Under the pieces are notes generated by a model. The model did not search any database, was not told the origin of the DNA, and was given only the letters and a program-made list of their open reading frames with translations. The position numbers and the translations under genes were made by a program. From positions 7,502,001 through 7,566,000 of the forward strand of contig OZ287756.1 of the NCBI GenBank assembly GCA_965649765.1: 64,000 nucleotides of DNA, read 5' to 3'. Origin of the DNA: Bispira polyomma (lineage: Eukaryota). Position 1 is the first letter of the stretch; each line of letters starts with the position of its first letter. Of the stretch, positions 12,300-47,890 are shown in pieces.

Positions 12300-12850
12300 G
12301 GGAGGGAATTAATGTGGGTAAGCAAGCTGGAAGAGATAGGTTTCAAGTTATATTCTAAACCTAAAAAGTGTTGGTAGTGATTTTTTTTTTTTTTTTTTAA
12401 TTTGGATATTTAACGTCCACTGTAGTACCTGTTTAGGTTATATTGGGACAGGTAGTTGGAAACGCTGGAGGAAACACTGCATACAGTTGATCAAGGTTCT
12501 GCACTGAAACCAGCAACCCACAGTAAGGAACTACTACCATTCCCACATAGGCATCGACGGCAGTCGAACTCACGCCCCCCAGAGGTGAGAGACCAGTGAT
12601 TGTGAAGCGCAATGCTTGCTAACCACTAGGCCACCGTGGCCCCTGCTAGTGATCTAAGCTCAACTGAAGAGACTATTCCATACAACATAGGGGCAGCGAT
12701 TGAGAAAACTCCAGATCTAGCCCTATGTGCTCATATAAGCTGGTGTTTTTATTAACATAAGAAGCAAAATTGCTCATTACTTGTTACACGTGATATGCTA
12801 CCACAAGATATACAAGAACGATCTATTAACCATAAAGATTTTCTTGTGAT
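12300..12850 (-). mobile_element. L2-type LINE 3' end remnant interrupted by a SINE
   Basis: Homologous to 27190-27550 and 45870-46240, whose minus strands read as a decayed FSMAAPML(W)NSLP...FRRKLK.YLF, the L2 ORF2 C-terminus. Confidence 0.7.
12381..12643 (-). mobile_element. tRNA-derived SINE, full length
   Basis: Reverse complement of 16760-17014 with A/B boxes and a poly(A) tail (T run at 12381-12398). TSD TGGTAGTGA / TGCTAGTGA. Confidence 0.92.
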
Positions 12851-16243: not shown

Positions 16244-16316
16244 ATGGACTTTAAGCGCTGGATAATATGTCTGTGTACTTACTTGTCAAGGCACTGTGGC
16301 ATCACCGGAAGTACTG
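16244..16316 (+). CDS. Receptor exon 1 (MDFKRWIICLCTYLSRHCGITGST; signal-peptide-like)
   Basis: ATG in GAGGATGG context; strong donor G|GTGAGT; phase 1 fits exon 2. The hydrophobic core is short, so this is the least certain exon. Confidence 0.72.
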
Positions 16317-19300
16317 GTGAGTTGTTCTCTGTTCATGCTTTAGTGATGTCATGGTATGTACTTCAGATACAGATACATGTCTACTTTCAGGTTTTTTTTG
16401 GGTGTGTGTTATAAAGGTATTTCTGTATACAGATGAGTTAATAAATTGTATAATACAGAAATCAGAGTTGATAAAAACATTTTAAGATTATAAAGTGATC
16501 CCTGCCTAATATATAACATATTTTCGCAACTTTTAATCACAAGTTATATTATTTTTAAATTTGATCAAAGGAACATCTACACCATACAATATATATAACA
16601 TAACATTCCACAATAATACACATGTGTTTGTTATCAGTAACCACAAATAGTTGTCTTTTAACACAGACATCGGCACACAGTATGACTGACACCCTTCAGT
16701 TTCGCGGGGTCGATTGCTTCAAGTCAATCCATGAAGGCCTTACATATTATTTTCCAACAGGGGGCCGCGGTGGCCTAGTGGTTAGCAAACATTGCGCTTC
16801 ACAATCACTGGTCTCTCACCTCTGGGCGGCGTGAGTTCAAATCCCGTCGATGCCTATGTGGGAAAGGTGGTAGTTCCTTACTGTGGGCCGCGGGTTTCAG
16901 TGCAGAGCCTTGATCAAGTGTATGCAGTGTTTCCTCCGGCGTTTCCAACTACCTGTCCCAATATAACCTGAACAGGTACTAGAGTGGACATTAAATATCC
17001 AAATTTAAATTCAAATTATTTTCCAACATGGTGGCAATATCAGGCTATGTCTGATAATGGTCTAATAATATAAATCCAACACCTCTCAGTTTGGCATGAA
17101 CCATATATGAAGTATGATATGTCTCAATGGGACGTTAAGCTTTAAACATTGCTAAATAAACCTTAATTGTCACATTTGGGGTGATAGCTACACTTTAATA
17201 TTTGTTACATTTGTGGTTTATGGATTTACTACATTTGTGGTTATTACTTTTGTGGTTTCATAATTTGTTACATTTGTGGCTATAACCATTTTGAGATTAC
17301 TTCATTTGTTGTCGGACATTGCTACATATGTGGTTATTATTTTGTAGCAATCCTGGTGACAAACAATTAAGCAAACCTACAAACCAACAGATATGGTTAA
17401 AAAGAATATCTCCCTGGTAGAGGTATTTACTGGTTAAACCTTATACATACAACATACTTTCCACCGAATGTTGTAATAAGTCTAATGTATTTCTATTGTA
17501 GATGTTTCTCTGGCAAATGTGGAAGAAACAAGATCCTTTTGTGAAGGCAGTCTGGAGGATACAGCTCTGGTTTGTATAACCTTCTCAGTGAAGTGTGACA
17601 GCTTTGATGAAGAATGTATGAGAAAAATTAGACAAGATGCTGAATGGGAATCATGTCGTAGAAATAAGGTAAAGTGCACTATCTGCCATTGTCTTCTAGG
17701 AGGTAACAAGGAGCAATTGGTCTGGGTTTGAACTTTCTCATCCTCAGACCAACACCCTAACTACTGTGCTGTTATTTTTTTATTTCTACACTTCCAAATT
17801 CAACTCCCTCACAATATTGATCATGTCACTAATATAGAAACGTAGTCCTTAAACAAGGGATACATCCGGAGTGTAACCCTGAATAAGATGTAGTGTTGCG
17901 AGTAGTCTGCAACATATCAGTTTGAAAGGGTTTAATATACTTACACCAAAAACAACATTTGCTTGTTATAGGTTTGCCAAACACAGATCAAAGTAAAAAA
18001 GGGGGAAAAATTAGATCCATACAAGTCTGGCTGTGAAAAGGATTGTGAAAAAAAAGTTGACGATAACAACCCTGCTAGCTTTGACTGTACCGTGACAAAT
18101 GCACTGGCAAGGGGTGGGCAGGAAGAGTTGGAATGTTACCGCTGTGATCGAGGGCTTTCATTTACAGACCTCTGTAATGGTCTGTATATCAATACAAAAA
18201 GACGCTTGCTTATTTGTGGTCTCCCATAGTCTAGTGAGGAGCCTCAGTGTTGCAATGCAGCCCTTTCATAGCTGTCTTCTGGGTAGATCTGTTGATGTTA
18301 ATTATTTTCCATTTCATTGTTTATGCTATTTTGGATTTTGAATATTGTTTCATGTAGCGCCTTAGAGTTTAATATAATTAAAAATAAGCACTGACATTTA
18401 TTTTTGATATTGATAACAATAGCGATAACATGGTGGTTGATGAAACCGATCACCAATTTCCCTATCCCTGTTTCCTCCACTAGTGAACTGTTAAATGCGA
18501 AGTTAAATCTAAATTAACTATACCATGGCATAGTAGTGAGGGAGTTAATAGTAGGAGATAAAATCCTGGACGAGTGAATACATAACTAGTGATGTAGGAC
18601 CTGTTCCTTTTCTGAGAACATTAACCCTCGGAGATACATTCATCAATCTGTCCCTATATATGTTTTAAATTTGATGAAGAAATTTGAATTTTTATGTCAA
18701 ATATTTCTATATTTATTTTAAAAAAAGTATCCTTATTTTCTGCATAAAAGATAATCAGTATAGTAATAACAAATGCTTTTGTTGAGTAATGCTAGCTATT
18801 TTTAAATGTGTTTTTACTTTTGTCATCACATAACAGCTAACTTAAGCTTATTTACTATTTGTCATCACAAAACAGCTAACTTAAGCTTATTTACTATATT
18901 CTAAGATGTTTACTGATTCTCAAGTGTTTATTTATTACATGACATTTTTGTAAACATTTAGTATAAAGTGTGATTTAACTTTTTATCCAATTCTGTCTTG
19001 TTACTTTTCCTTTTAGGACAAACCAAGTTTTAGATCATGTCATTTGCATAACTTAATTTTCCCTGTAATGAGATAATTATATTATAAAAATATGACAATC
19101 AAGTTGTAATTAACCTTTGTAAATAAATGATTGATCTCGTTATAACAACATATACTCACAACATTTCACTTATGATTGTTCACTTCCCATTTTTCCCCCA
19201 AAATATAAATTTTAATACATTTTCATGAAAATTGCAGAAAATGTGCTTTGTTAAATTGTTTATTGGGAATGATGCGTCCCTTTGCCCTTTTATAAGCCAC

Positions 19301-22213
19301 TCTGGTATAAATATAAGGTTTATCTTCAGAAAAATTGGAGATGTTTTCTATTATTTTAATAGAAACATAAGGTTTTGGGCCCTAAAAATTCTTAACAAAC
19401 TGAGATTTAAATTTTTTTAGAACGGTGACCCCCTGTTTTTTCCTCATATTTAGTTACAGTATGTAATTTACCACAAGTACCTTTTTATAAAAAATTTTCT
19501 TCCCAAAACAGGCTTTTCCATTGAAATCAACATTTAAATAAATACCATATTCAAAGCTTTATAGGTTTCCAAAGAGCCTGGTAGTTTTTTGATATTTTTG
19601 TTCAGCACATTCTTCAAGCTTTTCATAATTTTTTTAAGGGGAAAATCTGTGGTGTAAAACAAATGTGATCAAACAACCTTAATCTTTGTATAACATCCGT
19701 CACCTTTTGCAATAGTTTGATAATTTATTTCATTACCAACTTCTACAGACTCCACAAGTGCAGCCACCACCTCCGAACAGTTTACAACTACACCAACAAA
19801 ACAGGGATCAACATTAACAGCCTCTTCTCCCACATCTTCAGTAAGTCCCCCAAAACACTCACCTACTGCATCTATAAAAGCGGGATCAACATCCAAAGAC
19901 CCACACGTCACAGATACTTACATCACTGCAACATCACTTATATCTGCTTCAGTGGGAACTGTTACCTCACAAACAACGGAGCCATCTACTTCAATCAGTA
20001 CATCTGCAGAAACTTCCACATACACCGGTGATGGTAGAGAGAGCAGTCTCCAATCAGGGGACATGGGTATAAACCTGAAGCTGGTAGTACCGGTTATAGG
20101 TAGGTATGATGCAGAGTGTTTCTTTCTAAAGGTCATTGCAGTTTGAAGTCCTAGTTTGTCACGGTGTTCCAATCAAAAATAAGACTTTCATACTGTATCA
20201 TAAATTGTGGATGGCATTCTGATGATCTAGACCGATCCAGCTTTTAGTAGAAAAATTTTGGACTTTGCAAAAAACTTTTGTTGATCTACAATGGCTGAAT
20301 CTTGTCCTTGATTTACCATTAAACATGGTACTACTACTGTTCAACCCCCTAAGTCCCTCATTCCTTATGCTACCACCATAAGTCCACCATCGCTACTCCC
20401 TTAATGATTGTCTCCAGGGTTAAAATTGGCCGTCAGCTGCACTGTAGAATTAATATTTCCTTTTTGCTTTCTTTTTGGGGTCATTATTGGGGCCAAATAT
20501 AGTCTAAGATATTGTGTGTCATATGTATTGGTTTGGTTTCTGGTTTCTTCTACCATTGAATCTGGTTGTTGTGATATGACATAAGTTATTGAAAATGATG
20601 TAAATCCCAACTAAACTCATATAAAATCAGGATTCATCTCATGAACAATTCAGTATGAAGGTGACTTGTGAGGTTGGTCTTGTGATCAGATGGTCCCCTC
20701 GGTTAGACTCCTACTAATGCTGCTATTAGGCTCATTGGTGGGATTAACATCCTTGGGCCAGATGTGAACACACCAAATGCCTAAGGATGGTGATTTAGGC
20801 TTTGTTGTTGTAGGACTATCCCTTGTGAGGAACGATTGCTGTAGAGGATGATATATCAATAGAGTGCTATACAAATGCTCCAATAATAATAATTGTACAG
20901 CTAAATGTAAGGTAAATGCTGTATAGAGTGGATACTTTTTCATATGTCTCTATGATTTTTCTGTTTGCAGTGACTTGTCTCCTGGTTGGTTCCATTATCT
21001 TGGCTATCCTGCTTATATACTGGAAAAGGTAACTAATATAAGTAGAGATTCATTGGAAAGAGTACACATATGGCATTACATTTCAAAATATTTTGACCTC
21101 AAGTTAATTTTTACAATGTCGTCAGCTCAAAACATTGATACACAACACTGCCAGAAACAGTGACAGTTTCACTTTGGAAACTCTGATATCAGTAATTGTG
21201 ACCCATATTTGTGTACTCATCAGTACAATTTGAAAATTAGTGACCATGTGAACAATATATTTGACCTAATTATTAAAAGTCTGCACTTTTTATATCTTCT
21301 GTATCTTATCAAGGAAATTTTGCCTGGTTCATTTGTTGTTTTCAGAATTACAAAATATATTAACAACTGATTTGCAAATTATTTAGTGGTCCTAGAGAGA
21401 ATACAATCAAATTTTAAGATAAAACCAGGTAGATTTAAAAAAAATGTATTACCTGGAAATATATGTTTAATTGTTAAATTTGGTACATTAAGAAGGTCAT
21501 ATATGCTTGTAAATTACAAAGACCCTATTAAGACTAAAAAATGTATATTAAATGTATAGCATATATTAATGTATACTTTATTTCTGAAATATAACTGGTA
21601 TATACTTTTTTAATGTCTCAAAAACAAATTTTATTGTTTATCTTTTTTAAAATTATATTTTAAATTTATTACAAATTTCTGCAGAGGCATGCACTATGTT
21701 ATTCTATTTGTCTTATATTTTTATGCTTCCAGAAAGAAAAAGAATGTGCAAACAAAAGATTCCCAAGCCCATCCATCTCCTGACCATAATGTTAACAGTC
21801 CCACCATTGCTAAAACAAGTGATCCAACTAACATCACAGAACAGTACGTAGGACTGGACCATTCCACTATGCATATTGACGGGCATCCACAATGTCAGCC
21901 ATATGAAACACTGCAGTCAGCGACATACGAGTCTTGTGAACCTGGTACAGAAAAAAATGGCTGTCGATTTGTACAGAACCCTGAATATGAAAGCTTTGAT
22001 GATGATGCAAAGGATACAAGTGATACCCTGTATTTTAGGGAAACTCAAGGCACTGAAGCAAAGAACTGCGGCAATTATGGAGAAATCACTGGAGGTACAC
22101 AGGACACTAACACAAGTGCTAACATTCCCAAAGACAATGTTCATGAGGAGGTGGAATATCTGGAGCTCTTGCAAGAAGATGATAAACTTACAACAACAAA
22201 ACATGGAACTTGA
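16244..22213 (+). CDS. Six-exon type I membrane receptor, 445 aa: signal peptide-like leader, 12-Cys three-finger(Ly6/uPAR)-like ectodomain, mucin stalk, TM, tyrosine-motif tail. Exons 16244-16316, 17502-17668, 17972-18179, 19749-20099, 20971-21028, 21733-22213
   Basis: All five introns are GT-AG with compatible phases (1,0,1,1,2). Exon lengths sum to 1338 nt (446 codons) with no internal stop. Domain order is coherent, and exon 2-4 splice sites recur in the paralogous copies. Confidence 0.88.
16760..17014 (+). mobile_element. tRNA-derived SINE in receptor intron 1, young insertion
   Basis: A box TGGCCTAGTGG (16771), B box GTTCAAATC (16835), perfect 14-bp TSD ATTATTTTCCAACA (16746-16759 and 17015-17028). 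Confidence 0.95.
17168..17345. repeat. Degenerate minisatellite (TACATTTGTGGTT-like)
   Basis: About 8 imperfect copies of ACATTTGTGGTT with variable spacing. Confidence 0.8.
17502..17668 (+). CDS. Receptor exon 2 (Cys-rich domain, Cys 1-5)
   Basis: ttctattgtag| ... AAG|gtaaag; reads DVSLANVEETRSFCEGSLEDTALVCITFSVKCDSFDEECMRKIRQDAEWESCRRNK. Confidence 0.9.
17972..18179 (+). CDS. Receptor exon 3 (Cys 6-12, SGC and DLCN motifs)
   Basis: cttgttatag| VCQTQIKVKKGEKLDPYKSGCEKDCEKKVDDNNPASFDCTVTNALARGGQEELECYRCDRGLSFTDLCN G|gtctgt. Paralogs have G|gtatgt at the same position. Confidence 0.9.
18818..18896. repeat. Tandem duplication, 2 x 39 bp
   Basis: TTTGTCATCACAWAACAGCTAACTTAAGCTTATTTACTA occurs twice. 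Confidence 0.9.
19174..19678. mobile_element. Kolobok-like MITE in receptor intron 3 (inverted copy of 9926-10490)
   Basis: Internal sequence is the reverse complement of 9926-10490 (CCCAAAACAGGCTTTTCCATTGAAA, AAACATAAGGTTTTGGG); ends AACAACC|TTAA. Confidence 0.8.
19749..20099 (+). CDS. Receptor exon 4 (Ser/Thr/Pro-rich mucin-like stalk and start of TM)
   Basis: cttctacag| DSTSAATTSEQFTTTPTK...GINLKLVVPVI G|gtaggt; 351 nt, open frame. Confidence 0.9.
20971..21028 (+). CDS. Receptor exon 5 (transmembrane helix)
   Basis: tttttctgtttgcag| VTCLLVGSIILAILLIYWKR |gtaact; followed after splicing by the basic stop-transfer KRKKK. Confidence 0.9.
21733..22213 (+). CDS. Receptor exon 6 (cytoplasmic tail with YVGL, YETL, YESC, NPEYESF, YFRE, YGEI, VEYLEL)
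   Basis: ttttatgcttccag| in phase 2; same frame as track ORF 21689-22213; TGA at 22211-22213. Confidence 0.9.
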
Positions 22214-24703
22214 GAGCTATTTTACATGGCATGTGGTATAGTACTTTTGTTGTTGTGTAAACATTTGAAGAGACTTGCTTCTGCTGGAATATGATTCCTG
22301 GATCTTGCAGATTTTGAGATTAAAGCTTGAGATTAAAGAGGAGACCCCGCAAACATTAGTGTTTAAGGCATTGATAGACACTACTATGATGTGTCTCTTC
22401 CACAAAAGCCTGTCCTCAGGTCTTATACTATTACATCAATATTCAACTTGCTTGGCTGAGAGATGGGGGGGGGGGGGGGGTAATGAGATCCCTGGATCTT
22501 GCTGGTCTTGAGATTAATAGTTGCTCACTTAACAGTTGAGCTAAAGGGGAGACCCTGAGTGTTTAATGCTTTGATATACCCTAATATTACAGTGACCACA
22601 TTTGGGTATATACAGTTAGAGTTTCCTCTAGATATTCGGCGATTGCCTTGAATCAGAGATTCTGGTTTGACATATGAAGACCATTTTTTTTACATATATA
22701 TTTATATAGTTATTTCTTTGTTCTATTGCAATACCTGGAATAGACAAATATGAATTTGAATTTAAAATTGCATGGTACAGTGGAATCTTTATTATATAAA
22801 CAATTTGCGAGAGCCAGACTATTTTCACATAAAATAATGATCATAAAATAGAATAGGCATTATATTACAAAACAAAAGGAAACATAAATGTGGGAGTTAA
22901 AAAAATCAAGTCTTCGGACAAGTTTGTATAATAGAGGTTCTACTGTACATATCTAGTTTTCAAATTGAAAGCTATGTTATACTTTTGCCTTATGTTTATC
23001 TGTGATGTATGTAACTATTTAAGCATAATATACGTTTCCTATATCAATAAAAAATTGTCTCATTGCTATAGCATCATTATCCATATAATATAAAGGAGTG
23101 TTGTCTTACTGCATGTGGTCACTTTTATATGAAGACTGATAATAACTTTTATTTAGTTTGGCTTTGACTAGTAAAGCTGAAACCTTTTCAGTAGTTTCTG
23201 ATATAGTTTAGATATTAGTTTAGTTAGTTTATCATCGCTTACAACATATGTTGTGTGATTTTACGACTTGCAGTTCACTAATGAAGAAATGACAGGGCAG
23301 TTGGTCAATGTTTTCAGCTCTAAGCAAACCATCTGCATTTACCAAGTGTACGTGCCAGGACTGAGAAATTCAAACCCATGGCAGCAGGTGGTGAAGGTGA
23401 GTGTAATATTTCTACTGCAACACTAAGGCCCCAGCTGTTGATACAAAATTAAGACCTCCTTACATGTGTTCATAGTTTTTTTTAATTCTTTTATTGGTAA
23501 AGATGTCATTTTAAAATAGAATAGGGCCTTGCTCAGTATATTCAGGCATTCAGACAGTTGAACCCTTTTGCCACCAATTAAGTGGCACTCCACAAAAAAC
23601 GAATACATTTATTTGGCAAAATGTCTCCACTTGTCCAGATAAGTTATACAGATGGAAAAGATGGAAATCAACTATTACTGGCAATAAGGTACAGTACTGG
23701 TACGGAAATACTCGTAAACAGTTAAAAACACACAACTACTGGGGAAAGATAAGATCCAGTAATGTTTTGGCAATACTCAAAAATGAGCCAAAGGATTTTT
23801 CTGCATTTTTCCGTCTCGACAAGGCAGAACTTTTGCCCCTACCCTCGAACCGCCGACAAGGTTTTGGAAGGAAGCTGAAGTTATGGGAAGTTCGAAATAG
23901 GTTTCCCCACATTACAAAGCAGTTTTCAAAACGTCTCTTACTGCCTCTACAGTTATAGTGTGAACCCCAAATAAAAGAAACTTTTATTGATTTGATACAT
24001 GATACATATTTTTTACAGTAAAATCATGTTATGTAACCAAACCTAATGAATCCTATGTATGCTAGAATTTTCTGAAAAAAAAAATGAAATTAAAGATAGA
24101 AAATATCTAGAATGGTCCCATATATAAATATGATTTCCGAATGACTACATTATAATTATGGTTGTGGCTTTGAGCTGAAAGAGTACCTAGTACAACTGTA
24201 CATTCTTGTGTTGAAATGTGGTATAAGCCATTATGTAAAAATTGAATTGTAAAAACAATGGTACAATTAGATTTGTACAGTTAACACATTGTATTATGTA
24301 ACCTGTAAAAATATATTATTATTTCGTTAATGTTAAGAAGTATAAACACAATTAAATAATAACCTTTTTCACCATAGATAGTTATCACAGTTGTGAATGT
24401 TACCAGCCATCAGTGTTATAAATGGTATATCAATCATATGTATTTTGGCACACAAGTCCTATGGGCAGGGAGTTACTGTAATAATAACAATCTTTATTCT
24501 CATGTACCTGAAACATGATACAGAAAGGTTATACCATCAAAGATGTAACTTTTTATATTTATGTTTGATAAACTATATTTAAACTAATCTTCTACAATGG
24601 ATCTATCGTTACACTGGAGTCCGGGTTCGATACCCAAATACACATTAAAATCTTTGCAAGATGACGACTAAATTTTACATAATTTTTACATTACATGTGC
24701 AGT

Positions 24704-25710: not shown

Positions 25711-26658
25711 TTACCGGCATAATTGTGGGATATAGTTTTTGAGTTCTTTCTTGAAACATATTAATTATTATGAGTAATGTTATTGCTGGTAAGTAGAAGC
25801 AGACAAAGCAGAAGCATACAATGAACATTGTGACCAAGATATTAAGACTGCCTTTTGGAGAACCCTCCATTGGATGAGTCAGCTGAAAGTGGTGCTACTT
25901 TATGTTTATTTCTTAGTGTCAGAAAGATATTGGTGTAGACAAATAACATGAAACAAATAGGAAATAGTCATAAATAGACTAAAGGCAAAGATGATCTCGT
26001 GTAGGTCACTCCTCTAGAAGTACATGACTTTGCAAATGTCCTCTTGCATTCTGGACATACTGATCAAAAATATGCCAAAGAGGAGTGCAAACACAAAGAT
26101 GGCTAGTATCCCAATGCAGGCCAGTTTCTTATTCAAGTAGTTTTTATGCAGCACTGGCTTATCAACCATGAAGTATCTCTCTAAGGTAATCAGCAAACTG
26201 TTGTAGGTAGAGGCCATCAGGAATGTCTAATGCGGAAACTGTGACACCAAGATTCTGCAAATGATCTCGCTGTTGACAGCTAGGACATGCTGCAAGGTGC
26301 AAATGATGAGGAACAGCCCGCACAGACAATCAAACATAGACTAACTTTTGATGAAGATGTTGGTCAACTCTTGATTCATGGTTTTGCTCCTTGTCAAGAC
26401 AATCAAGACAAAGAGGATGCTAAAGGAAATGAAGAGACCAGTTGGGTAGTTGATGACAGAAATATCAATATCCCATTTTGTTCAACTTGGTAAAGGATCA
26501 TTCATTGCAGTTGTATTGCTGTCGGCAGCATTTGTAATGTTGGTAGCATCATCTGTGATAGTGACAGCCATCATCTGAGTACTCAAATACACAGTTAGGT
26601 TGATAATAGATTGAGTACATGATGACTTAGTAACTGTTGTTTGCTTTGCCATGTTCAT
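25711..26658 (-). pseudogene. Orphan class A GPCR pseudogene 1
   Basis: Colinear with 61043-62104. Stops at ~26482, ~26228 and ~26014; deletion in TM5; the TM7 NPxxY segment is deleted. LITLERYF is retained. Confidence 0.93.
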
Positions 26659-27189
26659 TTCTACTGAGCTGAACCCAATAGAATTTGCCCTTGTGATGCA
26701 AAATGCCCTTATGATGCAAAATGGAGCAATAATAACGGTGCTGGTTTTTAATTCCATGGCAGAAACAAAAAAAAAATGAGCAATGGCTGCATGGATTAAA
26801 GATATTAAGTGTTACTAATCCTAGGTCCATCAATAACCAGTATGTCAAGTAGAAGTTCATGTTTCCCACTGGTATGGAACTGGCTTCCGATAATGTCAAT
26901 TGCATCTAGGAGACTAATTATACATTAGTCTTTGTTACTTATAGAAAGGCCGGTACAATGTTCAATAGTCAACCTTTTTGTTTTCATTTTAATTCTTTTC
27001 AGCAGAAAAGAAAACATAAAGCTGGTTAATTGCATGCAATCACAAAATTATCCACATGCTGGAAATTTCTCTGCAATTAGATAATTATACTCAGTCTGAC
27101 AATTGCTTTACAAGTATGTCTACTTACAGCATATGCATTAGTAGAGGATAAAAGGTTTTATCTGACTGAGTGGGTGTGTGGGGGGCAAA

Positions 27190-27550: not shown

Positions 27551-30500
27551 AGTTACCGTGTAATCCTGGTGACAAACAATTAAACCAACATAAAGAGACA
27601 AAAACAATATCCCCCAGAAGAGGTATTTACTGGTATATGCTCGTTAGACCTTTTACAAACAAATTATTTGTCACTGCATGTTGAAATAAGGCTAATCATG
27701 TGTTGTATTCCTTTATAGATGTTGCTCTGGCAGATGTGAAAAAACGGGCATTTTGTGAAGGGAATTTGTTTGACCTTCTCAGTAAAGTGTGATAATTTTG
27801 ATGACAAATGTATGATTGAAATTAAGGAGAAGAATGGAGTGTGTGTTTCAGAAGTGAGGTAAATGGTAAAGAGCACTTAGTACATCACAAATTGAGAATA
27901 ATAATTGAGAATTTAGTTTGGTATGACATCGCTTATGACAAGTTAGGTCAAATCACGACAGTCAGAATTTTTATGACGATAAAAACCTCCCACCTTTGGC
28001 GTAGTGAAAGAACAAACATGATTGAAACCCACAATGGTGAAAGGCCAGTCATTGTGAAGCAATCACATCAAACCCCTTGGGCCACAGCGGCCCCTGGAAT
28101 CACATTTGAATGAAAATGCAAAAAAAATTTGAGGTAGTATAATTTCAAATTTTTAACAGTCTAGTAAACATGCATATCGAAGTAATCATTCATGTATATA
28201 TATTTATTATATGTTTTGCCATAATTTGTTAGCCAATCAGAATCAATGACACAGGGTTATCATGTCTGAATACATCTTACACACATGACAAATGGTCAAG
28301 TTTGTTTCACTTTCTTTCAAAACTTATTAACCCTTTCGCAGCTGGTGCAACAATATTGCCCCATACTTTTACTGGGTGACAGATATCAGCACACCACTGA
28401 CTACTCCAGGAATTATATAAAACCCTTTTCTTTTATTCCTTACAAACATAGAATTCAGCAGTACTAACACACAAATGCACAGTCCTAAAATAATGCATGG
28501 TAATGGTCATAGTACCATTGTATGCTTTTATTATTAACTCTCTCACAATGTGGACTCAAAATGATTTATTAGTCATTTCAGTTATCTAGAAAAATCGTAG
28601 TCCTCAGACAAGCGGGCATTGTCAGGAATTAGAGTGAAACCTCAAATAAGTTGTGGTGTTGATTCATCAGAAATACATTAGTATGAAAGTAAATAAGAAA
28701 GAAATAAATCCTTACCAGTCAGGCTGTAAAGATGGTTGTGAAGAAGAGGTTGAGGACCACCACGTTGATGGCTTTAAATGTACAGTGGTTAATACAAGGG
28801 GTGGGCAGGAAGACTTTGAATGTTACCACTGTGGTCGAGGGCTTTTCATTTACAGACAGCTGTAATGGTATGTTTTTTATACTGTTGAAGACTGATTTAT
28901 TTGTACGTCTTCCATCACCTAATGCAGGGTCTCAGTGATGCATTGAGGGATCAACATTAACAGACATTTCTGTTACACCTTCAGCGATTCCCTCAAAAGA
29001 CACACAAACAACATCTATAAAATATAGATCTACATCCAAATATTCTTCAACCACAATTCCATCTTTTTCAACTCAAACCAAGTATCACATGTCACAGACA
29101 CCTTCATCTCAACTCCATTGTTTATATCTGCTACAGTGGGAACTCTTAGCTCACACACGTCAGAGCTATTTACTTCATTAAGTACATTTGCAGAAACTTC
29201 CACAGACACCAGTGATGGTAAAGACAACGGGATCCAATCAGGGGACACAGGTACAAACCTGAAGCTGGTGATACCAATTATAGGTTGGTGTGATCTAGAA
29301 GGTCCTTCAATCATGGTTTGAAATTATAGTTTATCACGGTATTTAAATGTTAAACAATGTAAATAACCCTTTGTGGTTGTGTCGAGTACTGCGGATAATA
29401 TAAAACCAATCCGGCTTTCATGGGAAAATCTTCGGTTTGGTTAAAACTGCTGTGGATATATTGCCATTGAATCTTGTCTGTGATTAACCATGATACCATC
29501 CGACCCCTAATTCCTCATTCTACCACCTTTTGTCCCTATAGTACCACCGTAAGTTCATCTTGACTAACCCTTGTTAACCTTCGCGAAAAGCTGTGCCTAT
29601 ATTCCATAAAAGCTGTAATTTTCCCTCATCACTTAAAACTCAATAACTCCCCCCAATGACACAGAACCATGATGATTTACTTCACCGTGGTCAAATGGGA
29701 CAGGCCTGGATTACCTTAAAAATTGACAGTCAACATTAACACTTATGATACCAAAATAAAACTATCAAAGGCAAGTGAAGGGAAATTTTTAGTAATAGCT
29801 TACAGATAGCTTGAGTCACTAAAGTATACCCCAACTGCTTTTGGCATTCAACAATGGCATTCAATAATGGACTAATTTTTTCAACAAAGAATTCTGCTGG
29901 GCTAACATTTCCTATTCGGAGAAACTGATGGAAAATTAAATTATAATTGTGTATTGTTGAATGCTTGCCAACAAACATGAGAGTCAGAATGGTTAATATT
30001 GGCCTTTGTTTTATTATCGAAGTCATTATTGAGGCAAAATATCTTGTAAGATTTTGTGTTCGTATGTATGTGTGTCCCTATATGTTATACTTACACCCAA
30101 ATACATGTTCTTTATATTAAATGTTACGTAATTGTACGTAGTTTGGTTATTGATCCCTGTTGTATATTCTACATTTACTTGCATCAAGAGGATGTTTTTG
30201 TGTGATTTTAGGCCACTGGTTTTCAGGAATTTTTAGGAATTATCTCTCTCCCCAATGTGGTTTTGAATGATTTATTTTTGTGTTCCTTTATGTGAGAAAG
30301 CATACCGTAAGTCTGTGGTTTACAGTGCTTAGTGTGCTGATTTCTTCCACCATTGAATATGACCGTCATGATATTACCTGAATTGTGGAAAATCACACGA
30401 AACCATAACTAAATTCATCCAAATTCATGATCTATATCATGAACAATTCAATACAAGAGGGTCTTTCACTAGTAAGACACTTTAGGGCACTACTTCTTTT

Positions 30501-30739
30501 GTCCTCATAGCAAACGTTATACCTCTACCTTAAATGTGTGAATTACACATAGCTATGCTTAGCAAATTTGTCTGACCATCCATAGACTGACTAATTAGAT
30601 TATTCCACCTGTAGCTTAATTCCCGCTTTTTGAGGGACCCCATATTGAATTTTCTACTGACATGGAAGCAACAGAAAATATTTTAAGCAAGCAAATAAAC
30701 ATTTTCATATAGTTTTTAGTCAACATTTTTAGTTTTTAT

Positions 30740-32280
30740 ACGTTTTTTTTGTGTTTATTATGTGTTGTTGACTGCTTGCAAGGATTTGTACTGCGTTCAA
30801 TATGAGACGAGCAACAAAGAAAACGCCGTCAGGTACACAATTAAAGAAATCAGCATGCCAAGGCAAAGCGACAGGGAAGATGGGATACAGGGGTCAACTG
30901 GTAAACACTTTATCTCCCAATTTACAGAGTATTCTGACGGAGGCCGTCGGTAACTACAGCAGTTCTACTCTTGTTGAACCTCATAACGTTTCCATTCTTG
31001 TCAGCACCATCGCTAGTCCACCACCTTCCTCTAAATCACCCCCATCGGGAGGAGCTACATCAGACAAAAAGTTGAATATATTAGGAGGTCTGGAATCTTC
31101 CAACACTGCCTTCTCACAGAGATTGGACAGAGTTCAGTCAGGCTTGTTCAACCAGCATGTTTGGGTGCAACCTCAGGGCCTGTCGGCCATGCAGGGACCG
31201 AGTATAGCTACAAACCCATTCCCGGTACACAATTTCACAAATGTTTAACAACAGCTACTGAACACAGCTTATGTCAACATGGCGACACAGCCACACGTTA
31301 TTCAGGTTATCCCTTCAGGAATTTGCTAGAGGCAGAATTGTGCCCAATCTGGATGCGCTAAGAACCATGCTATCAGTACAGGCAGCTGTAACACATCAAC
31401 TAACTCAGTATGAAATGGCAGCCATTAGGGAACTGAAACAAGGTAAGAGCCTTAAATCTGGTAGATTCAATAGTACTGACATTACTACTACTGATGCAAA
31501 GCATAGATGGCCTAACGAGGGCTAGGTCAGCGGAGCCACAAGCAAGCGACCTGCCTATGACAACTTATCACTGCCAAAATGGGCAGCAGGTCAGCTATCA
31601 AACACCTTACTTGTCACCGACGTCAATGAGATGCGCAGTATAATGTAACCACTTGTTCATGCCTTCCGAGATGCATCCTCGCTACCATGGCCCGTCGTTC
31701 GTGCCGCGTGGGCGTTAAACATAAAGGAAATAGAGGAGGGCAGACTGGCCTGCACATATAATACGCAGTGGGCTACTGACAGGCTCAATGCATCTCAACT
31801 TGCCATGGCAAACAGCCACCCATGGGGAAATGGCAATCTTACTAGTAACAGCACCACATGAGAGGGGAAGACAATTTGCAAACATTTTAACAGTGGAAAG
31901 TGTACATAAAAAACTGATCATGGCATTTACAAACACAATTGTTGGCACTGTGCCAAGGTTGTGGGAAAGGAATCAAGTCATCCAGAGTTTAAGTACTTTA
32001 AGGCCAATGCCAGTAAGATTGAGAATAATACCAATACTAAATAGGTAGCTTACGGACAATGTAAAATTGAGAACAATAACAGTGTTTTAAGTGTCAATGT
32101 AAATAATGAAAACGATTAGGATATTCGGGACGAAAAGTGTAGTTTCTTAAATGAGTGCATAGTAAATGTTGAAGGTTACAAAAATGTTACAAACAGTATA
32201 AATAATATGCCTTCTGTCATTACAGAACCAGAATTTTTAGGTTGCAAAATGACCAACACCAAAAGGTTGGTTATCTCTTC
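30740..32280 (+). mobile_element. DIRS/Ngaro-like retroelement 5' part (gag), decayed
   Basis: Fragments LKSGRFN, WPNEG, YDNLSLPKWAAGQL, DASSLPWPVVRAAWA and a C-terminal CKHFNSGKC..H...H.C..C zinc-finger-like motif; in-frame stops. Confidence 0.75.
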
Positions 32281-35200
32281 CCCGAAGAGAGATGAAGGGC
32301 AGAAAATTCACCTCACAAGCTCCAGCCTAGCAAAACAACGGTAACACAAAGCGTACATAATCCTGATATAGATAGAGGGCATGTTATTGTAGGTAGCACT
32401 GACCAGTTCTTCAAGCAGGATGAGTTCTGATAAATAAAAAAAAAATAACCCCTATGACCCAGACACTATTTTGTATTGTGTATAAAGAAAACTATAGAAT
32501 AATTACCCATAGAAACATTGCCAATGTCACTTTGGAAACTGTGACCCACATCGGTGTTCTCATCTGTACATTTTCAAAAATAATGACACTGTTTATTTAT
32601 AGTCTGCACTTTTTATATCTTCCATATCTATTACCTCCTTCGAGGAGTTTTGCCTTTTTCTGATGGTTGGTTTGTTTGTCTTCAGAATTCAAATGATATA
32701 ACTGATTTGCAAAATATTTGGTGTAGCATGAAATAATAAAATAACATGTGGAGACAAAACTATACATAGACAAAACTATATTAGATTAGCCATGAAAAAT
32801 AATTTAATTGTTTAAAGAAGCTCATAAATGATTGTAAAATAAATACAACAATGAACACTACTGGAAGGACTGAAAGGTGTATCTTAAAGGTATAGCAGAT
32901 ATTAATGTATACTTTAGTTCTGAACTATAACTGTTTTACTTTTTATATAACACTGTCTCAAATACAACTTTTGATATTTCTCTTTTTCAAAATTTTATTT
33001 AAAATATTAAAGACAAGAAGACAATAAGTGAGAGGAAATTACAACAACGGAACATGGATCTTGCTGGTCTTGAGATTAATAGTCACTTGCTTAACAGTTG
33101 AGCTAAAAGGGAGAAGCTGAGTGTTTAATGCTTTGATATACCCCTATATTACAGTGACCACATTTAGGTATACAGTGAAAGTTTTCCCCTGGACATATAT
33201 TTATTAGGGATTGCCTTGAATCAGAGATTTTGCTTTGACATATGTAGACATATATAGACCATTTTGCATTAAGCATTTACAATGTACATATATATTTATG
33301 TAATTATTTCTCTATCCTATCTCAACACCTGGAAAGGACTAATACAAATTAGATTTTAAACTAGCATGGTGCAGTAGAACCTTTATTATCCAAATATCTT
33401 GGGAGAGCCAGATTCTGTTTAGATATTATAATTGTCATAAAACAGAAGAGACATTTCAGTAAAAAGCAATAGAAAAACATAAATGTGGGAGTTGTCAGAA
33501 TTTTAGTCTGGAACTTAGACTGCCTGTCTCTTCAAGCAATGGCGAGTAATATCTTTAACCCCTTCTGGAAGGAAGTTTTCATATCCTGGTCAAAGTATAA
33601 GACAACATTTACTAAGCAAATCGATATTAGAACCTATCCTATATGGAATAGTCACTTTTTAACAAATAGAAATCTTTTACAGCATAAAACGTTTTTCACT
33701 GAGAAAGGCCTAACATCATAAATGATCTGTTAGATGAACAAGGGTTATTGTATGGTTACGACAGTTTTGTCATATCCTTCAAGTTGCCTTAACTTGTGTT
33801 GATTATTTTAGCTTGATCTATTCTGTTCCTTAGGAGTGAAGAAATATTATTGCCACAGAAAAGAGAAAGCTTAAGTTAAGTGAACTAGAACAGAAATCAT
33901 TAGTCAATGTTAAAAATATGAAGAAGGAATGCCAAGGAACTTATTGGATATTTGTGAATTTGACATCTGGATTAAATAATTTTATTTATATCAGCCCAAA
34001 TTCAGGAATATTTATAAACAAAGATAAAAACACGAGATGTGGATTGAAATGGCCAGTTTATTCAACTGACAAAAATGTATATATTAAAGCAAGCATACAA
34101 CATCTTTAAAATTTGATTACATCACACAAGTGACTTATATATACATTATTTATTTACATAAATGTGGTGAGGGACACAAACCCAAAATACCGCAGGTCTC
34201 CCTCACCCCACACAGAAAAAGGAAGGGAAAAAGAAGACACATATTGACATTATTATGGTTGGAATCCTAATGTATTCTCCAATGCATCAGATTTTCAAAC
34301 TCCACTAACGTTATTTCAGAAGCAGAGAGGCCTACTTTGGCCAAGTGGGTAAGGAATGGCTATTAATGCTTAATGGGCATTGGATGTAAATGTACAATCT
34401 AGAAATGTTTCTATCCGGATCATGGATCTGTATAAATTTGACAAAAATAAAACAGTATAAGCATCCACACAAAGGATGGATCCAGATAAAAAAATACATG
34501 ATTTCTCCCAATAGGAAGAATATATACAGTTTTATAAGGTATTGTCTCATTTGATTTAGTGATATCTTTAGATATACAACAAAATAACAATTCAGTTTTT
34601 TTTTCAATAATAATGACACTTATATTTTATCACTGATCAAACAGATGTTAAATGCGCCTTACATCAGATTATAATCCCCATTACTAACAAGAATATAATG
34701 CATTTCTAAAACACACAGAGTGAAAAATGTAATAAAATTCCCATTTTTTAACATTCTGTAACAAATTTGGGAAGATTTTCTGGTGAGTGTGAGATTTTCT
34801 GGTGAGTGTGAGTATAAACAATATCCGATTTGGAAGAAGTACACTGATCTGAATCCCGATCCAGATCAATCACAGTGTGAATCCACCTTAAGCTGGAAAC
34901 TGTGCAATTGTTGTGTTATATGAGATGGGGAACTCCGTAGTAAATTCAATGCAGTGGAGCTGCTTCCCAGAGAAGGATGGAGGAGGGAAGTACAGCACTC
35001 TCCAGAGGCTTGCCAGGGAGCAAGGTGTCAAGCTGGGAAAGTGTAATAAAAATCAAACCTATTAAATTTGGCAAGAGGCATATATAATATTGGTATCCAC
35101 CAGTACTGCGTGCCCACCAATAATAAATGAAAAACCTGTCTGGAAACCGTCTTTTAAGAACTGGAGGTCACTGGACTTGTAATGACTAGTAACTGTTCAG

Positions 35201-35913: not shown

Positions 35914-36830
35914 GGTTAGATATGTAAATCACATTACTACAGTGGTATAGGCAAACCGTAGGTAACCATAAAGATGAAGCCATACTTTAATTAAACGGAT
36001 AAATAAAGTAAGAATTGATCATAACAATTCAATATACAAAAAAAAAAAAAAAAAAAATCAGAGTTTTAAATAAACTGTCAATAGGTATGAGTAAGATAAG
36101 TTAAATGAATATGAATAAAATTGAAGGAATAATAAAATTTCCTTAAGTAGTAGAAAGTATGATCCTATGAGGTGATACACAAAACATAAAAGGATGGTCC
36201 ACAAAACTACAAAATACATGGCATAACATGTAATGCAGTATAAATAAATGGGATGTATCCTAAAACTCCACACAACATGGTATAACATGTATAAAGGAGA
36301 GAAAAAAATGGGATAATGTACAAACACCACAAATATATGGCATAACATGTTGGATATGTAAATCACATTACTACAGTGGTACTTTAATTAATCTGATGAA
36401 TAAAGTAAGAATTGATCATAACAATTCAATATACAGATGGAGAAGTATGGTAAAAATGAAAAAAAGTCAGAGTTTTAAATAAACTGTCAATAGGTATGAG
36501 TAAGATAAGTTAAATGAATAAGAATAAAAGTGAAGGAATAATAAAATTTCCTTAAGTAGTAGAAAGTATGATCCTATGAGGTGATACACAAAACATAAAA
36601 GGATGATCCACAAAACTACAAAATACATGGCATAACATGTAATGCAGTATAAATAAATGGGATGTATCCTAAAACTCCACACAACATGGCATAACATGTA
36701 TAAAGGAGAGAAAAAAATTGGGATAATCCACAAACACCACAAATACATGGCATAACATGTAAGCAGTAAAACAGGATATATCCACTAAGGAAAAACTGCA
36801 AAATACATGGCATAACATGTAATGCAGTAG
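35914..36830. repeat. ~410-440 bp tandem duplication with nested ATACATGGCATAACATGT sub-repeats; third partial copy at 37915-38050
   Basis: 36058-36350 is nearly identical to 36467-36760; the CATGGCATAACATGT motif recurs every ~55-60 bp. Confidence 0.92.
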
Positions 36831-36999
36831 GAAATGTATCACACTCAAAGGAACATATAAAACACAATATGTAGGGTAAAGACAAATTGAGGAAGGGTAC
36901 ATTAGAAAGATGAACTGGTAGAATAGTTATATGAAAATTATAAATAAATAAATGGATAGACTTCCATATAAAATAAACAATGAAAATTGTACACCTTCC

Positions 37000-37915
37000 A
37001 GTTATGGACAACTACAATAAAACACATTGTAACAGTAGGTGAAAGAGACATAATGGCAAATGTGAAATGTATGAACAAATTAAAATGCTAAAGTTGCAGA
37101 CATAGAAGAATACAAGCACATTAAATTGTATATTATCTAGATATGGACAATTAAAATTAAAACACAAACAGTGTAACAGTAGTTATGATACATATAAAGG
37201 TAAATATGAAATGGATGAATAAAATAAACTGCTATAGTTGCAGACATAGAATAATACAACCAAATTAAGTTGTACACAGTCCAGTTATGGACAATTAAAA
37301 TTAAAACTCAAGCAGTGTAACAGTAGCCCTCATATACATAAAATATAAAGGTGAATATGAAATGGATGAATAAATTAAACTGCTAAAGTTGCAGACATAG
37401 AAGAATACAGCCAAAATAAATTTTAAATCATCTACCTATGGACAATTAAAATGAAACACAAACAGTGTAACAGTAGTTGTATTAGATGTAAAGGTGAATA
37501 TGAAATGTATGAATAAAATAAACTGCTAAAGTTGCAGACATACAACCAAATTAAATTATACATTGTCCAGTTATGGACAAGTAAAATGAAACACAAACAG
37601 TGCAACAGTAGTGGTATTACATATAAAGGTCAATACGAAATGGAAGAATAAAATAAACTGCTAAAGTTGCAGACATACAACCAAATTAAATTATACATTG
37701 TCTAGTTATGGACAATTAAAATGAAAACACAAACAGTGTAACAGTAGTGGTATTAGATATACATGTAAAGGTGAATATGAAAATGTATAAATAAAATAAA
37801 CTGCTAAAGTTGCAGATATACAACCAAATTAAATAAGACTTTGTCTAGTTATGGACAATTAAAAATAAAACACAGTGTAACAGTAGTTGTAATAGATATA
37901 CAGGTAAATATGTGA
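37000..37915. repeat. Tandem array, ~6.5 copies of a 135-150 bp unit
   Basis: ATGGACAA...CAGTGTAACAGTAG...CTGCTAAAGTTGCAGACATA recurs near 37005, 37143, 37287, 37438, 37573, 37708 and 37851. Confidence 0.95.
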
Positions 37916-42287: not shown

Positions 42288-43280
42288 CTAGTAGGTAGAA
42301 GAGGAAGGTTGATGTAGTGAATTTTGAAAGGCCAACGCCACCTGGTCAGAGGAGTCATGGTCTTGTGTAATGTAGCGCCAGACGCATTCTGAGGTCCAAG
42401 TGCCATGACTTTGAATATTTTGAATGGAAACATTGTTGTTAAAGGCCCACGTGGCTCCAGAACGTCTAAAAGAATGAAAAGTGATTTTAGAATTTTGCAA
42501 ACCGAGATCTTTAAGAAAGATAGCGAAGTTACGCCTGACTTTAGTGTCAGTCATAGGGAGCCACGTGGCCAAGCTTTTACATTGAAACAGAGGCGAGATT
42601 TTTTGACCAGGAGTGATGGCAAGCATATTGGAAATGGCAGCCACTGGACACAGTGGGGAACCCCCAAGTGAGGGTATTTTTAAAAGTCTAACTGTATCCC
42701 TGCTCTGTAATGTCTTACTCCATTTAATCAATACTTGAAGACCAGGAGGTGCAAATATGATGTCACCTCTGGCTAGGTGTTGTAGGGGTGAGTAAGTAGA
42801 GTTAGAGTGGGGAACCAAATTTGATATTCTCAAGAATGAGAAAAATGCAAAGAGGTAGATGGCCTTGTAGACCTGACCCATGTACATAAAGTCACATTTT
42901 TTGATAATTTGGATCAGCAGAGGAATGTGAATGATGGATTTAAGTTGTACTTTAAAGGGATTATGCAATGCAATTGCCTTTTGGAAATACTTTACTCTAG
43001 GGTCCATGAAGGCTGAGGTGTCAAGGCCATATAGGGCAGCCAAGTAATTTGCTATACCAGAGTGAGAGGTGTTGTTTTCAGCCAAAACCTCGAGGAAAGC
43101 TAAGAGAATAGTAGCCGTGATTGGTTGTATTGCAATATTTGCAAACACACAGTAAGCTAGGAAGTTTCTGAACATAAAGTTATAAGATTTTTGAGTGGAG
43201 GGTCTGAAGGCTGTATGAGCCCTTCCAGCTGCTCTGCCAGCTGCCTTTGCCAGCCAGGAGTTTGTACCTAAAGAATACAA
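42288..43280 (-). CDS. Tyrosine recombinase of the DIRS/Ngaro-like element (~330 aa)
   Basis: Catalytic residues are present: FSFLRISNL (R), IKWSKT (K), HSFRRSGAT (HxxR), HGTWTS (W), VWRY (Y). Confidence 0.93.
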   Translation of the reverse strand: MYSLGTNSWLAKAAGRAAGRAHTAFRPSTQKSYNFMFRNFLAYCVFANIAIQPITATILLAFLEVLAENNTSHSGIANYLAALYGLDTSAFMDPRVKYFQKAIALHNPFKVQLKSIIHIPLLIQIIKKCDFMYMGQVYKAIYLFAFFSFLRISNLVPHSNSTYSPLQHLARGDIIFAPPGLQVLIKWSKTLQSRDTVRLLKIPSLGGSPLCPVAAISNMLAITPGQKISPLFQCKSLATWLPMTDTKVRRNFAIFLKDLGLQNSKITFHSFRRSGATWAFNNNVSIQNIQSHGTWTSECVWRYITQDHDSSDQVALAFQNSLHQPSSSTY

Positions 43281-45356: not shown

Positions 45357-47890
45357 TGGATTAAAGATATTAAGTCTTGTTATTCTTAGGTCCATCAATT
45401 ACCAGTCTGTCAAGTAGAAGTTTGTGCTTCCCATTGGTATGGAACTGGCTTCCAATGATGCCAATTACTTTTAGTAGGGGACTAATTATCCATTAGTCTT
45501 CATTACTAATAGGGAGGCCGGTTCAAAGTTTGTTGTCAACTATGGTTTGATTTAATTTTAATTCTTTTCAGCAGAAAAGAAAACATGAAGCTAGTTTTGT
45601 AGAATAACAGTGAAAGATAAAATAGCTGAGTTAATATATTCAAATTAGCCTCATCATGTAGCTGATATTTACTGTCAAATACACTTCACTAATAGTCATT
45701 GTTTAAACTTTATAACTAAAGGTTTAGCTTTTCCTATTAACTTAAATTGCATGCAATCACAAAATTATCCACATTCTGGAAATTATGTCTCACTACAGTG
45801 TATGCATTAGTAGAGGACTTGATTGATTAGTAGAGATTTGATCTGACTGTGGAGGGGGGGGGGGCTAAGCAAGTATGATGAAATGAGATGGGATTTATGT
45901 TTCCTCCTAAACCCAGAAAACATTTCTAGTGATCTAAGCTCAACTGGGAGACTATTTCATAACATAGGGGCAGCCATAGAGAAAGCTCTAGATCCAAGAT
46001 CCAGCCCTCTTAGCAGGTTTTACAGAGGAAACAGAAAGTATTTTCCCTCTGTTTTGTGACGGGCATTTTGTAGTTTGCCATCAAAAATGATTAACAGCAC
46101 AAACCTACACCAAGGTGCGAAAGGTTCCATCAATTGTGTAATGCCTACCAGCTTCCTTCCATTCAGGTCAACTCAAAATTTAATGAATTCATCCTTGGAA
46201 TAAACTGCATCCTCCAACAAATTTGTTATAAATATGTTATGTAGTTTCCGTGTAATCCTGGTAACAAACAATTAAACCAAAAAAAGAGACAAAAACAATA
46301 TGCCCCAGAGTAGGTATTTACTGGTATATTTTCGTTAGACCTTATACAAACAAAATATTTGTCAGTACAATTTGAATTTGTTTGACCTTCTAAGTAAAGT
46401 GTGATCATTTTGATGACAAATGTATGATTGAAATGGAGTGTCTGAATGGAGTGTGTGTTCCAGAAATGAGGAAAATGGACTACACGAGCACTTAGTACAT
46501 CACAAATTGAGAATAATAAATGAGAATTTAGTTTGGTATGATGTCGCTTTTGACAGGTTAGGTCAAATCACATTGGTGAAAGGCCAGTCATTGTGAAGCA
46601 ATCACTTTTAACCCCTAGGGCCACAGCGGCCCCTGGAGTCACATACGAATGAAAATATGAAAAAATCATTTGAGGTAGTATAAATTCAAATTTTTAACAG
46701 TCTAGTAAACATGCATATCGAAGTAATTATTTATGTATATATATGTTTTATATTTATTATATGTTTTGCCATAATTTGTTAGCCAATCAGAATCAATGAC
46801 ACGGGGTTATCATGCCAGAATGCATCTTACACACATAACAAATGATCAAGTTTGTTTCACTTCCTTTCACAACTTATTAACCCTTTCATAGCTGGGGCAA
46901 CAATATTGCACCATACTGAAGGAAATTCCCTAGGTAACAAATAATAGCACACTACCTACAACTCCAGGAATTATATAACACCCTTTTCTTTTATTCCTTA
47001 CAAACATAGAATTCAGCAGTACCAACACAGAAATGCACCATTGTATGGTTTTATTATTTGCTGTAACACTCTCACAATGTGGACTCAAAGTGATATTGAT
47101 GGCTTTAACTATACAGTGCTTAATGCAAGGGGTGGGCAGAAATACTTTGAATGTTACCGCTGTGATTGGGGGCTTGCATTTATAGGCCGCTGTAATGGTA
47201 TGTATATTAGTACAGATGAAGGCTGACTTATTTGTACGTCTCCCATTACCTAATGCAGGGTCTCAGTAATGCATTGAGGGATCAACATTAAATGTTAGAC
47301 AATGTAAATAACCCTTTTTGGCTGTGTCGAGATCCGTGGATAATATAAGACCAATCCGGCATTCATGAGGAAAATCTTGGGTTTGGTTAAAACTGCTGTG
47401 GATATATTGCCATTGAATCTTGTCTGTGATTAACCATGATACCATCTAACCCCTAATTCCTCATTCTTCCACCTTTTGTCCCCATGGTACCACCATAAGT
47501 TCACCCTCACTAACCCTTGTTAACCCTTACAAAAAGCTGTACCTCTATTCCACAAAAGCTGTAAATTCCCCTCATCACTTAAAACTCAATAACTCCCCCC
47601 ACAATGGCACAGAACCATGATGATTTTCAGCATGGCTCTCGCCAGTTTACTTCACCGTGGTCATATGGGACAGGCCTGGATTACCTTGAAAATTGACCAT
47701 CAACATTAACACTTCTGATACCAAGATAAAACTAAATAAATAAAAGTACACCCCAACTACTTTTGGCATTCAATAATGGCATTCAATAATGGACTAATTT
47801 TTTCAACAGAGAATTCTGCTGGGCTAATATTTCCTATTGGGAGAAACTGATGGAAAATTAAATAATAATTTTGTATTGTTGAATGCTTGT
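45357..47890. repeat. Segmental duplicate of ~26790-29970 (GPCR upstream block + L2 fragment + receptor remnant)
   Basis: Long near-identical colinear blocks, e.g. CATGGATTAAAGATATTAAGT, CACAAATTGAGAATAATA, GGGACAGGCCTGGATTACCTT. Confidence 0.93.
46250..47890 (+). pseudogene. Receptor pseudogene copy 3 (exon 2 remnant ~46372-46470; exon 3 remnant ~47090-47197)
   Basis: DGFNYTVLNARGGQKYFECYRCDWGLAFIGRCN G|gtatgt. Exon 4 is deleted at a TTAA microhomology; truncated by the Gypsy remnant. Confidence 0.85.

Follow-up and report, generated by a model that had tools for sequence, protein, structure and literature searches.

What kind of protein ends in a tail with seven tyrosines, and what would those tyrosines recruit? 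The question is raised by an exon at positions 21733..22213 on the forward strand of a 64,000-nucleotide stretch of the Bispira polyomma genome (assembly GCA_965649765.1, contig OZ287756.1, positions 7,502,001 to 7,566,000; hereafter the window, whose numbering is used throughout unless another contig is named). A first-pass annotation had read the exon as a mixture of activating, inhibitory and endocytic tyrosine motifs resembling the tails of Draper and MEGF10. The exon is here predicted to be the last one of an animal gene, single-copy in the genome, that likely encodes a single-pass surface receptor. Our verdict is that the receptor is likely real and fast-evolving, an orphan built to a known signalling design.

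All seven tyrosine contexts listed by the first-pass annotation are present, in frame and in this one exon, on the forward strand: EQYVGL (Tyr at 21845), QPYETL (Tyr at 21902), TYESC (Tyr at 21926), NPEYESF (21977..21997, Tyr at 21986), LYFRE (Tyr at 22031), NYGEI (Tyr at 22076, with YGEI at 22076..22087) and VEYLEL (22151..22168, Tyr at 22157), the TGA stop codon following at 22211-22213. In NPEYESF a candidate PTB site of the NPxY type overlaps a YxxF that is a candidate SH2 or AP-2 site. The number of tyrosines is not unusual, seven being found against 5.7 expected from the base composition of the exon. The description of the tail as acidic and low-complexity held in its first half, the tail being moderately acidic (D+E 18%, K+R 9%), but not in its second (entropy 4.02 bits).

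The surroundings of the tyrosines were assessed quantitatively through 100,000 residue shuffles of the tail, nine patterns being tested. Leu or Ile occupies the +3 position in four of the seven cases (P=0.00055) and one of Leu, Ile, Val, Met or Phe in five (P=0.0005); this +3 enrichment is all that survives correction for nine patterns. The dipeptide Tyr-Glu, seen three times (P=0.02, uncorrected), and NPxY (P=0.027, uncorrected) are marginal over the nine patterns, while acidic neighbours of Tyr (P=0.12) and the match to the immunoreceptor tyrosine-based inhibition motif (ITIM) consensus (P=0.13) are not significant. Against a crude background, the tyrosines in long open reading frames of the fetched DNA, of which 34 of 260 (13%) have Leu or Ile at +3, the tail is enriched at P=0.007. 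An internal contrast is provided by the two tyrosines of the extracellular stalk encoded by exon 4, which have Thr and Asp at +3. The signal in the array is a set of YxxΦ motifs and no single named motif. Internal duplication was considered as its origin and set aside, the repeats within the exon amounting only to one of 16 nt and one of 19 nt, each in two copies and likely due to chance.

Read after the model of Draper and MEGF10, the pair YVGL-x15-YETL (21845..21913, +), two YxxL motifs, would form a long-spacer activation motif of the immunoreceptor tyrosine-based type (ITAM) for Syk/Shark, NPEY would bind CED-6/GULP and VEYLEL would be a true inhibitory ITIM, so that phagocytic activation and its shut-off were united in one tail. 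Look-alikes for all three motif classes of the Draper and MEGF10 modules, as described in PMC8092387, do occur: NPEY is an NPxY, as claimed, and VEYLEL fits the ITIM consensus (I/L/V/S)xYxx(I/L/V), yet so do 13% of the shuffled tails. The spacer is of 15 residues (19 from Tyr to Tyr) and falls, as the annotation itself had remarked, outside the canonical 6-12; the canonical pattern YxxL/I-x6-12-YxxL/I has no match in the tail, and the spacings given in three sources are 6-8, 6-9 or 6-12 (PMC6994640, bioRxiv 2022.03.04.482883, PMC6771651). On the other side, the tandem SH2 domains of Syk are described as accepting pYxxI pairs up to about 50 Å apart (PMC6771651), the oyster receptor CgIgR is described as signalling through an ITAM and Syk (PMC6994640), and the genome contains a Syk-family SH2 exon whose best matches in the PDB are Syk/ZAP-70 (E=8e-15; one SH2 exon only, of Shark or Syk type). 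The acidic triad of the hemITAM, [ED][ED][ED]xYxxL as defined in PMC12582321, precedes none of the tail YxxL motifs, the closest approach being E-E-V-E-Y. The EMI/EGF ectodomain is absent too, and the claim that a Draper-like mix of activating and inhibitory motifs shares a single tail exon does not agree with Draper itself, where PMC8092387 places the ITIM on a separate splice isoform. Taken with the non-significant ITIM match, these points leave a Draper-like switch unlikely. Motifs of the YxN (Grb2) or YxxM (PI3K) type were not found in the tail.

The gene to which the exon belongs could be modelled from six exons on the forward strand, whose 1338-nt intact frame predicts a type I membrane protein of 445 amino acids. 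Each of the five introns has GT-AG ends, and the exon phases fit together over the whole frame. Predicted exon 1 (16244..16316) contains the ATG and a signal-peptide-like segment of 24 amino acids, its frame closing with that of exon 2; it is the sole candidate between 5000 and 17400 that runs from an ATG to a phase-1 donor and combines a hydrophobic core with high donor strength (score 9.8). Predicted exons 2 (17502..17668; AG/GT ends, open frame) and 3 (17972..18179) encode the two halves of a 12-Cys extracellular domain, with 5 and 7 Cys respectively, the second half ending C-Y-R-C-x9-C-N. A Ser/Thr/Pro-rich, mucin-like stalk and the first residues of a transmembrane helix come from predicted exon 4 (19749..20099), and the helix (Kyte-Doolittle mean 2.9 over 19 residues), with basic residues behind it as a stop-transfer signal (KRKKK, spanning the splice), from predicted exon 5 (20971..21028). 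Exon 6, with its polypyrimidine/CAG acceptor and a phase that closes the frame with the transmembrane exon upstream, adds the cytoplasmic tail; at the exon's own composition an open frame of 159 codons would arise by chance with a probability of 4e-5 per frame. The predicted layout is therefore a signal peptide, the 12-Cys domain, a Ser/Thr stalk of about 110 residues, one transmembrane helix and a 161-residue tail, the ectodomain of about 240 residues holding 12 Cys in all. We infer that the mRNA is spliced as modelled. The annotation's statement that the ectodomain differs from that of Draper is borne out by this predicted single-pass protein with a cytoplasmic tail and no EMI/EGF. Contigs from three public runs of one study, which behave as DNA, may derive from the source samples and are uninformative on expression, cover 19497-22555 (runs X1 and X2, one sample) and 20746-22555 (X3); they match letter for letter, and assembly error is therefore excluded.

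Within the window the receptor gene forms a tandem array in which it alternates with genes for G protein-coupled receptors (GPCRs) on the opposite strand. Two further copies of the receptor gene are present, both broken and both lacking the Tyr motifs. Copy 2 (27704..33063, +) has frameshifts in exons 2-4, neither exon 1 nor the transmembrane exon could be detected in it, and its tail exon is deleted except for a probable remnant of the last 30-40 or so bases, 33022-33054 matching 22172-22203 (P=0.014 with the shared flank excluded). Since copy 2 keeps this probable remnant, the tail exon would appear to be older than the tandem duplication. Copy 3 (46377..47207, +) is reduced to portions of exon 2, which has a stop codon, and of exon 3. 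The intact gene, copy 1, has lost neither its frame nor any of the 12 Cys or ten splice ends at about 25% divergence from copy 2. On the assumption that half of the divergence of about 0.25 fell on copy 1, neutral drift since the duplication would have brought about 7.7 nonsense changes, against none observed (P of none 5e-4). The gene is probably functional and fast-evolving.

What, then, might the tail do? We lean, by a little over even, towards a docking platform with several phosphotyrosine sites, for which SHP2, binding at VEYLEL, would be the most probable partner. This motif shares five of six residues with the Gab1 SHP2 site VEYLDL, a peptide bound to the N-SH2 domain of SHP2 in PDB entry 4QSY (PMC7345789), Gab1 Y627 being named as an SHP2 site in PMC3637500. 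A candidate reader is encoded in the genome, where one SH2 exon has its best PDB matches in PTPN11 (the N-SH2 of SHP2; E=1.5e-16) and a second SH2 exon lies 1.4 kb away. In Gab proteins two such sites are described as activating SHP2, the best-known effect being stronger ERK signalling (PMC2747914). Because Gab-bound SHP2 activates ERK, the label 'inhibitory' given to VEYLEL by the annotation is unsupported. Its proposal of dual recruitment survives in part: SH2 exons of both SHP2 and Syk/Shark type exist in the genome and the +3 positions are enriched in hydrophobic residues, but the tail has no pair with ITAM spacing and the ITIM match does not exceed chance.

As a working scheme, the 12-Cys domain, held out by a glycosylated stalk, would bind a ligand and cluster the receptor, whereupon a Src-family kinase would phosphorylate tyrosines in acidic context; a kinase from outside is proposed because the tail has no catalytic domain. 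SHP2 might then bind pY-LEL, perhaps with the help of pY-GEI, 27 residues upstream, which is put forward as the second arm of a two-site ligand because of the analogy to the Gab1 Y627/Y659 pair; the output of SHP2 might be positive (ERK) instead of inhibitory. Single-SH2 adaptors could bind YETL, YESF and YVGL, and a PTB adaptor or AP-2 binding to NPEYESF could lead to uptake. Recruitment of SHP2 appears to be the best-grounded of these steps, and binding of Syk/Shark across the 15-residue spacer, while possible, is the weakest. Among feature neighbours of the tail in the ESM Atlas an unnamed, mostly molluscan cluster scores 0.93, and two others fall below 0.9, SCIMP (0.76), a transmembrane adaptor, and A36 of poxviruses, all of this being weak (recognition 1341).

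Several observations weigh against a signalling receptor of this kind. At +5 VEYLEL has Gln where Gab1 has Leu, and the +3 enrichment is no proof of SH2 binding, because YxxL/I/F motifs double as AP-2 sorting signals. The hydrophobic core of the signal peptide is short. The exon 3 donor, GTCTGT, scores only 3.4 compared with 7.9-9.8 for the other four, the broken sister copies having GTATGT at this position, and read-through of exon 3 would stop 16 codons on, near 18227, possibly giving a short, secreted 12-Cys protein without the tail as a soluble isoform. When copies 1 and 2 are compared over 149 codons in exons 3-4, dS is 0.25 and dN/dS, the ratio of nonsynonymous to synonymous divergence, comes to 1.03, so that the substitutions reveal no purifying selection, and exon 3 changes polarised with homologous repeats elsewhere in the genome divide 7 to 5, which is uninformative. 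Finally, no homologous tail was found in the genome, among longer proteins or in metagenome contigs.

The last of these points rests on a range of searches. In the genome (1.04 Gb, 75 contigs) the tail is single-copy, searches by protein, by DNA, with a 22-residue piece around NPEY and with a 17-nt pattern all returning only itself; a second match to the 17-nt pattern lies in an unrelated 34-residue frame and was discarded. None of 100 candidates among longer proteins in a set of 5.8 billion was related (proteins of near or shorter length fell outside this search), none of 158 pattern matches in metagenome contigs was confirmed, and the last 30 residues have no match among PDB sequences. A search of sequencing runs at 80% likeness with 21690-22290 brought up no diverged second tail, though contigs matching exactly were also left out of its results, which makes it uninformative.

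The ambiguity of the YxxΦ motifs opens the way to an explanation by trafficking only, in which a mucin-like surface or lysosomal protein would use YxxL/I/F and NPxY, unphosphorylated, as AP-2 and PTB sorting signals and engage in no SH2 signalling. The five YxxΦ motifs and the one NPxY can be read just as readily as sorting signals, and the lack of significant acidic enrichment around the tyrosines accords with this. For sorting, a signal or two close to the membrane or C-terminus is usually enough, whereas the five here are spread over 105 residues. CED-6 is described as able to bind NPxY without phosphorylation (PMC8092387). With the closeness of VEYLEL to the Gab1 site and the three Tyr-Glu starts also on the opposing side, we regard a purely sorting role as quite unlikely.

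The donor and the dN/dS value bear on another possibility, that the gene is decaying or was recently silenced, or yields mainly a secreted 12-Cys product by way of exon 3, the tail being made rarely or never. The broken state of both sister copies and of three neighbouring GPCR stretches points the same way. Set against it are the frame, cysteines and splice ends that copy 1 has kept through its divergence, and the behaviour of dN/dS itself, which is noisy at this locus (GPCR controls 0.28, 0.63 and 1.33) and is expected to be about 1 for a stalk compared with a pseudogene partner. Decay or secretion without the tail is thus distinctly unlikely, and the docking platform is the reading we retain.

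The 12-Cys domain remains unclassified. Pfam contains no match at E<=1 to exons 2, 3 or 4, each scanned singly since the domain is split by an intron; no relative appeared among longer proteins or PDB sequences, and the ESM Atlas offered no usable match. AlphaFold models of the exon halves, made separately, reached mean confidence (pLDDT) values of 49 and 55, and fold searches with them gave no usable match (best Z 3.7). A profile of exon 2 run against 1.84 billion representatives yielded three matches. Two of them, P0001 (E=7e-10) and P0003 (E=9e-5), come from another ENA assembly and are homologues about the size of an exon; P0002, repeat-rich and bacterial-looking, was taken as chance.

By eye the Cys spacing, with its C-x5-C...K-S-G-C core and C-x-x-C...C-N end, recalls Ly6/uPAR three-finger and activin-receptor domains. 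Ly6/uPAR hallmarks are given in PMC4839075 as an N-terminal LxCxxC, a C-terminal CCxxxxCN and ten Cys in about 80 residues; here the N-terminal CxxC is missing, the C-terminus reads C-Y-R-C-x9-C-N and the 12 Cys extend over about 110 residues. A QVR profile search of the genome made 27 matches without the receptor locus among them, and a local Ly6 profile comparison gave a probability of about 1%, in the wrong register. In the literature, covered in part, we found no receptor pairing a Ly6 or three-finger ectodomain with a Tyr-motif tail, though a three-finger fold is here no more than a candidate. The genome does contain genes of QVR/Ly6 type: a tandem cluster of nine near-identical single-exon genes with GPI-like (glycosylphosphatidylinositol) C-termini lies at G000:C4:31883184-31928398, and at G000:C12:38250266-38253397 (-) a QVR/Ly6 C-terminal half continues, where a GPI signal would be expected, into a hydrophilic stretch of about 310 residues rich in Tyr, Asp, Asn and Gln.

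The two-exon module does recur in the genome, five times in one gene on contig C14 (10.835-10.850 Mb, -). Comparison of exon 2 with its five homologous exons there shows all 5 Cys, a Val and a Trp to be invariant, and exon 3 is 42-46% identical to its counterparts. The C14 region (G000:C14:10813000-10850000, -) has the module repeats with PTEP linkers, then two exons for chitin-binding domains of the CBM_14 family (E about 5e-7), an acidic exon whose 364-residue open frame contains ETTESPEE repeats and, further on, an exon resembling a GPI signal; we infer that these exons form one transcript. Chitin-binding domains of this peritrophin type would fit an invertebrate. A bolder proposal would be that an undescribed 12-Cys module, used otherwise in a protein that binds chitin and is probably matrix- or GPI-associated, was joined by shuffling to a mucin stalk, a transmembrane helix and a multi-phosphotyrosine tail, founding a non-Ig (immunoglobulin), non-EGF receptor class that senses chitinous matrix or partners and signals through Syk/Shark and SHP2. 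In this full form we consider the idea very doubtful.

The remaining contents of the window may be dealt with briefly. Three single-exon GPCRs of the rhodopsin family (7tm_1, E=1.6e-28), one intact and two broken, lie on the reverse strand at 25714-26754, 55721-56606 and 61046-62188, and another of the same tandem array, apparently intact, just past the window (G000:C9:7572071-7573132). Overlapping open reading frames at 42291-45331 (-) look like those for the reverse transcriptase, RNase H and tyrosine recombinase found in retrotransposons of DIRS/Ngaro type; a remnant at about 30770-32340 (+) occupies the place of the transmembrane exon missing from copy 2. Broken fragments directly after copy 3 (47828-49614) resemble the pol gene of a long terminal repeat retrotransposon. 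A very high-copy repeat of 249 bp with a tRNA-like start, probably a short interspersed element, is present in two inverted copies, 93% alike, at 16761-17009 (in intron 1) and 12395-12643, and degenerate tandem repeats with a strong AT skew occupy 35971-38051.

Mixed Tyr-motif tails on fast-evolving invertebrate receptors have already been published (Alr, FcoR, CgIgR, Draper), and the tail alone would be a further example. The new element is its partner, an unclassified 12-Cys domain common to this predicted receptor and a chitin-binding protein. If the gene is expressed and its product signals, a module of the structural matrix would have been recruited into a phosphotyrosine receptor through exon shuffling, and a non-Ig, non-EGF case would be available for testing whether the effect of recruiting SHP2 is inhibitory or activating in invertebrates.

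How does the protein compare with known systems? Like Draper, MEGF10 and CED-1 it is predicted to be single-pass and non-catalytic with a tail combining NPxY and YxxL/I, and readers of Syk/Shark and SHP2/Corkscrew type are encoded in the genome. Unlike them it has one 12-Cys domain and a mucin stalk in place of EMI or EGF/NIM repeats, no canonical ITAM, and an ITIM-like site in the same exon; in Draper the NPxY precedes the YxxL pair, whereas here it follows. Membership of the Draper/MEGF10 family was rejected, the EMI/EGF ectodomain being absent (no Pfam match, only 12 Cys).

A second group, Botryllus FcoR, Hydractinia Alr and oyster CgIgR and NCAM1, shares with it the character of lineage-restricted type I proteins from tandem clusters with pseudogenes and divergent tails, theirs being described as mixing ITIM, ITAM/hemITAM and bare YxxI/L/V motifs (PMC12582321, bioRxiv 2022.03.04.482883, PMC6994640, PMC11841013). 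Their ectodomains are of the Ig superfamily and their families large and polymorphic, in contrast to the unclassified Cys-rich domain and the one intact copy found here. Pfam showed no Ig match, though divergent Ig folds can escape it, and 12 Cys in about 110 residues would be unlike an Ig domain. With the Gab/DOS proteins and with LAT, PAG and SCIMP there is the likeness of a disordered multi-Tyr scaffold, VEYLEL recalling Gab1 VEYLDL and the 27 residues between the last two tail motifs comparing with 32 between Gab1 Y627 and Y659 (PMC2747914). Gab/DOS proteins are cytosolic, whereas this protein is predicted to span the membrane, and transmembrane adaptor proteins (TRAPs) are described as having few extracellular residues (PMC4861716), as against an ectodomain of about 240 here. 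By analogy, the protein is likely to work as the tails of Draper/MEGF10, FcoR, Alr, CgIgR and the TRAPs do while belonging to none of them.

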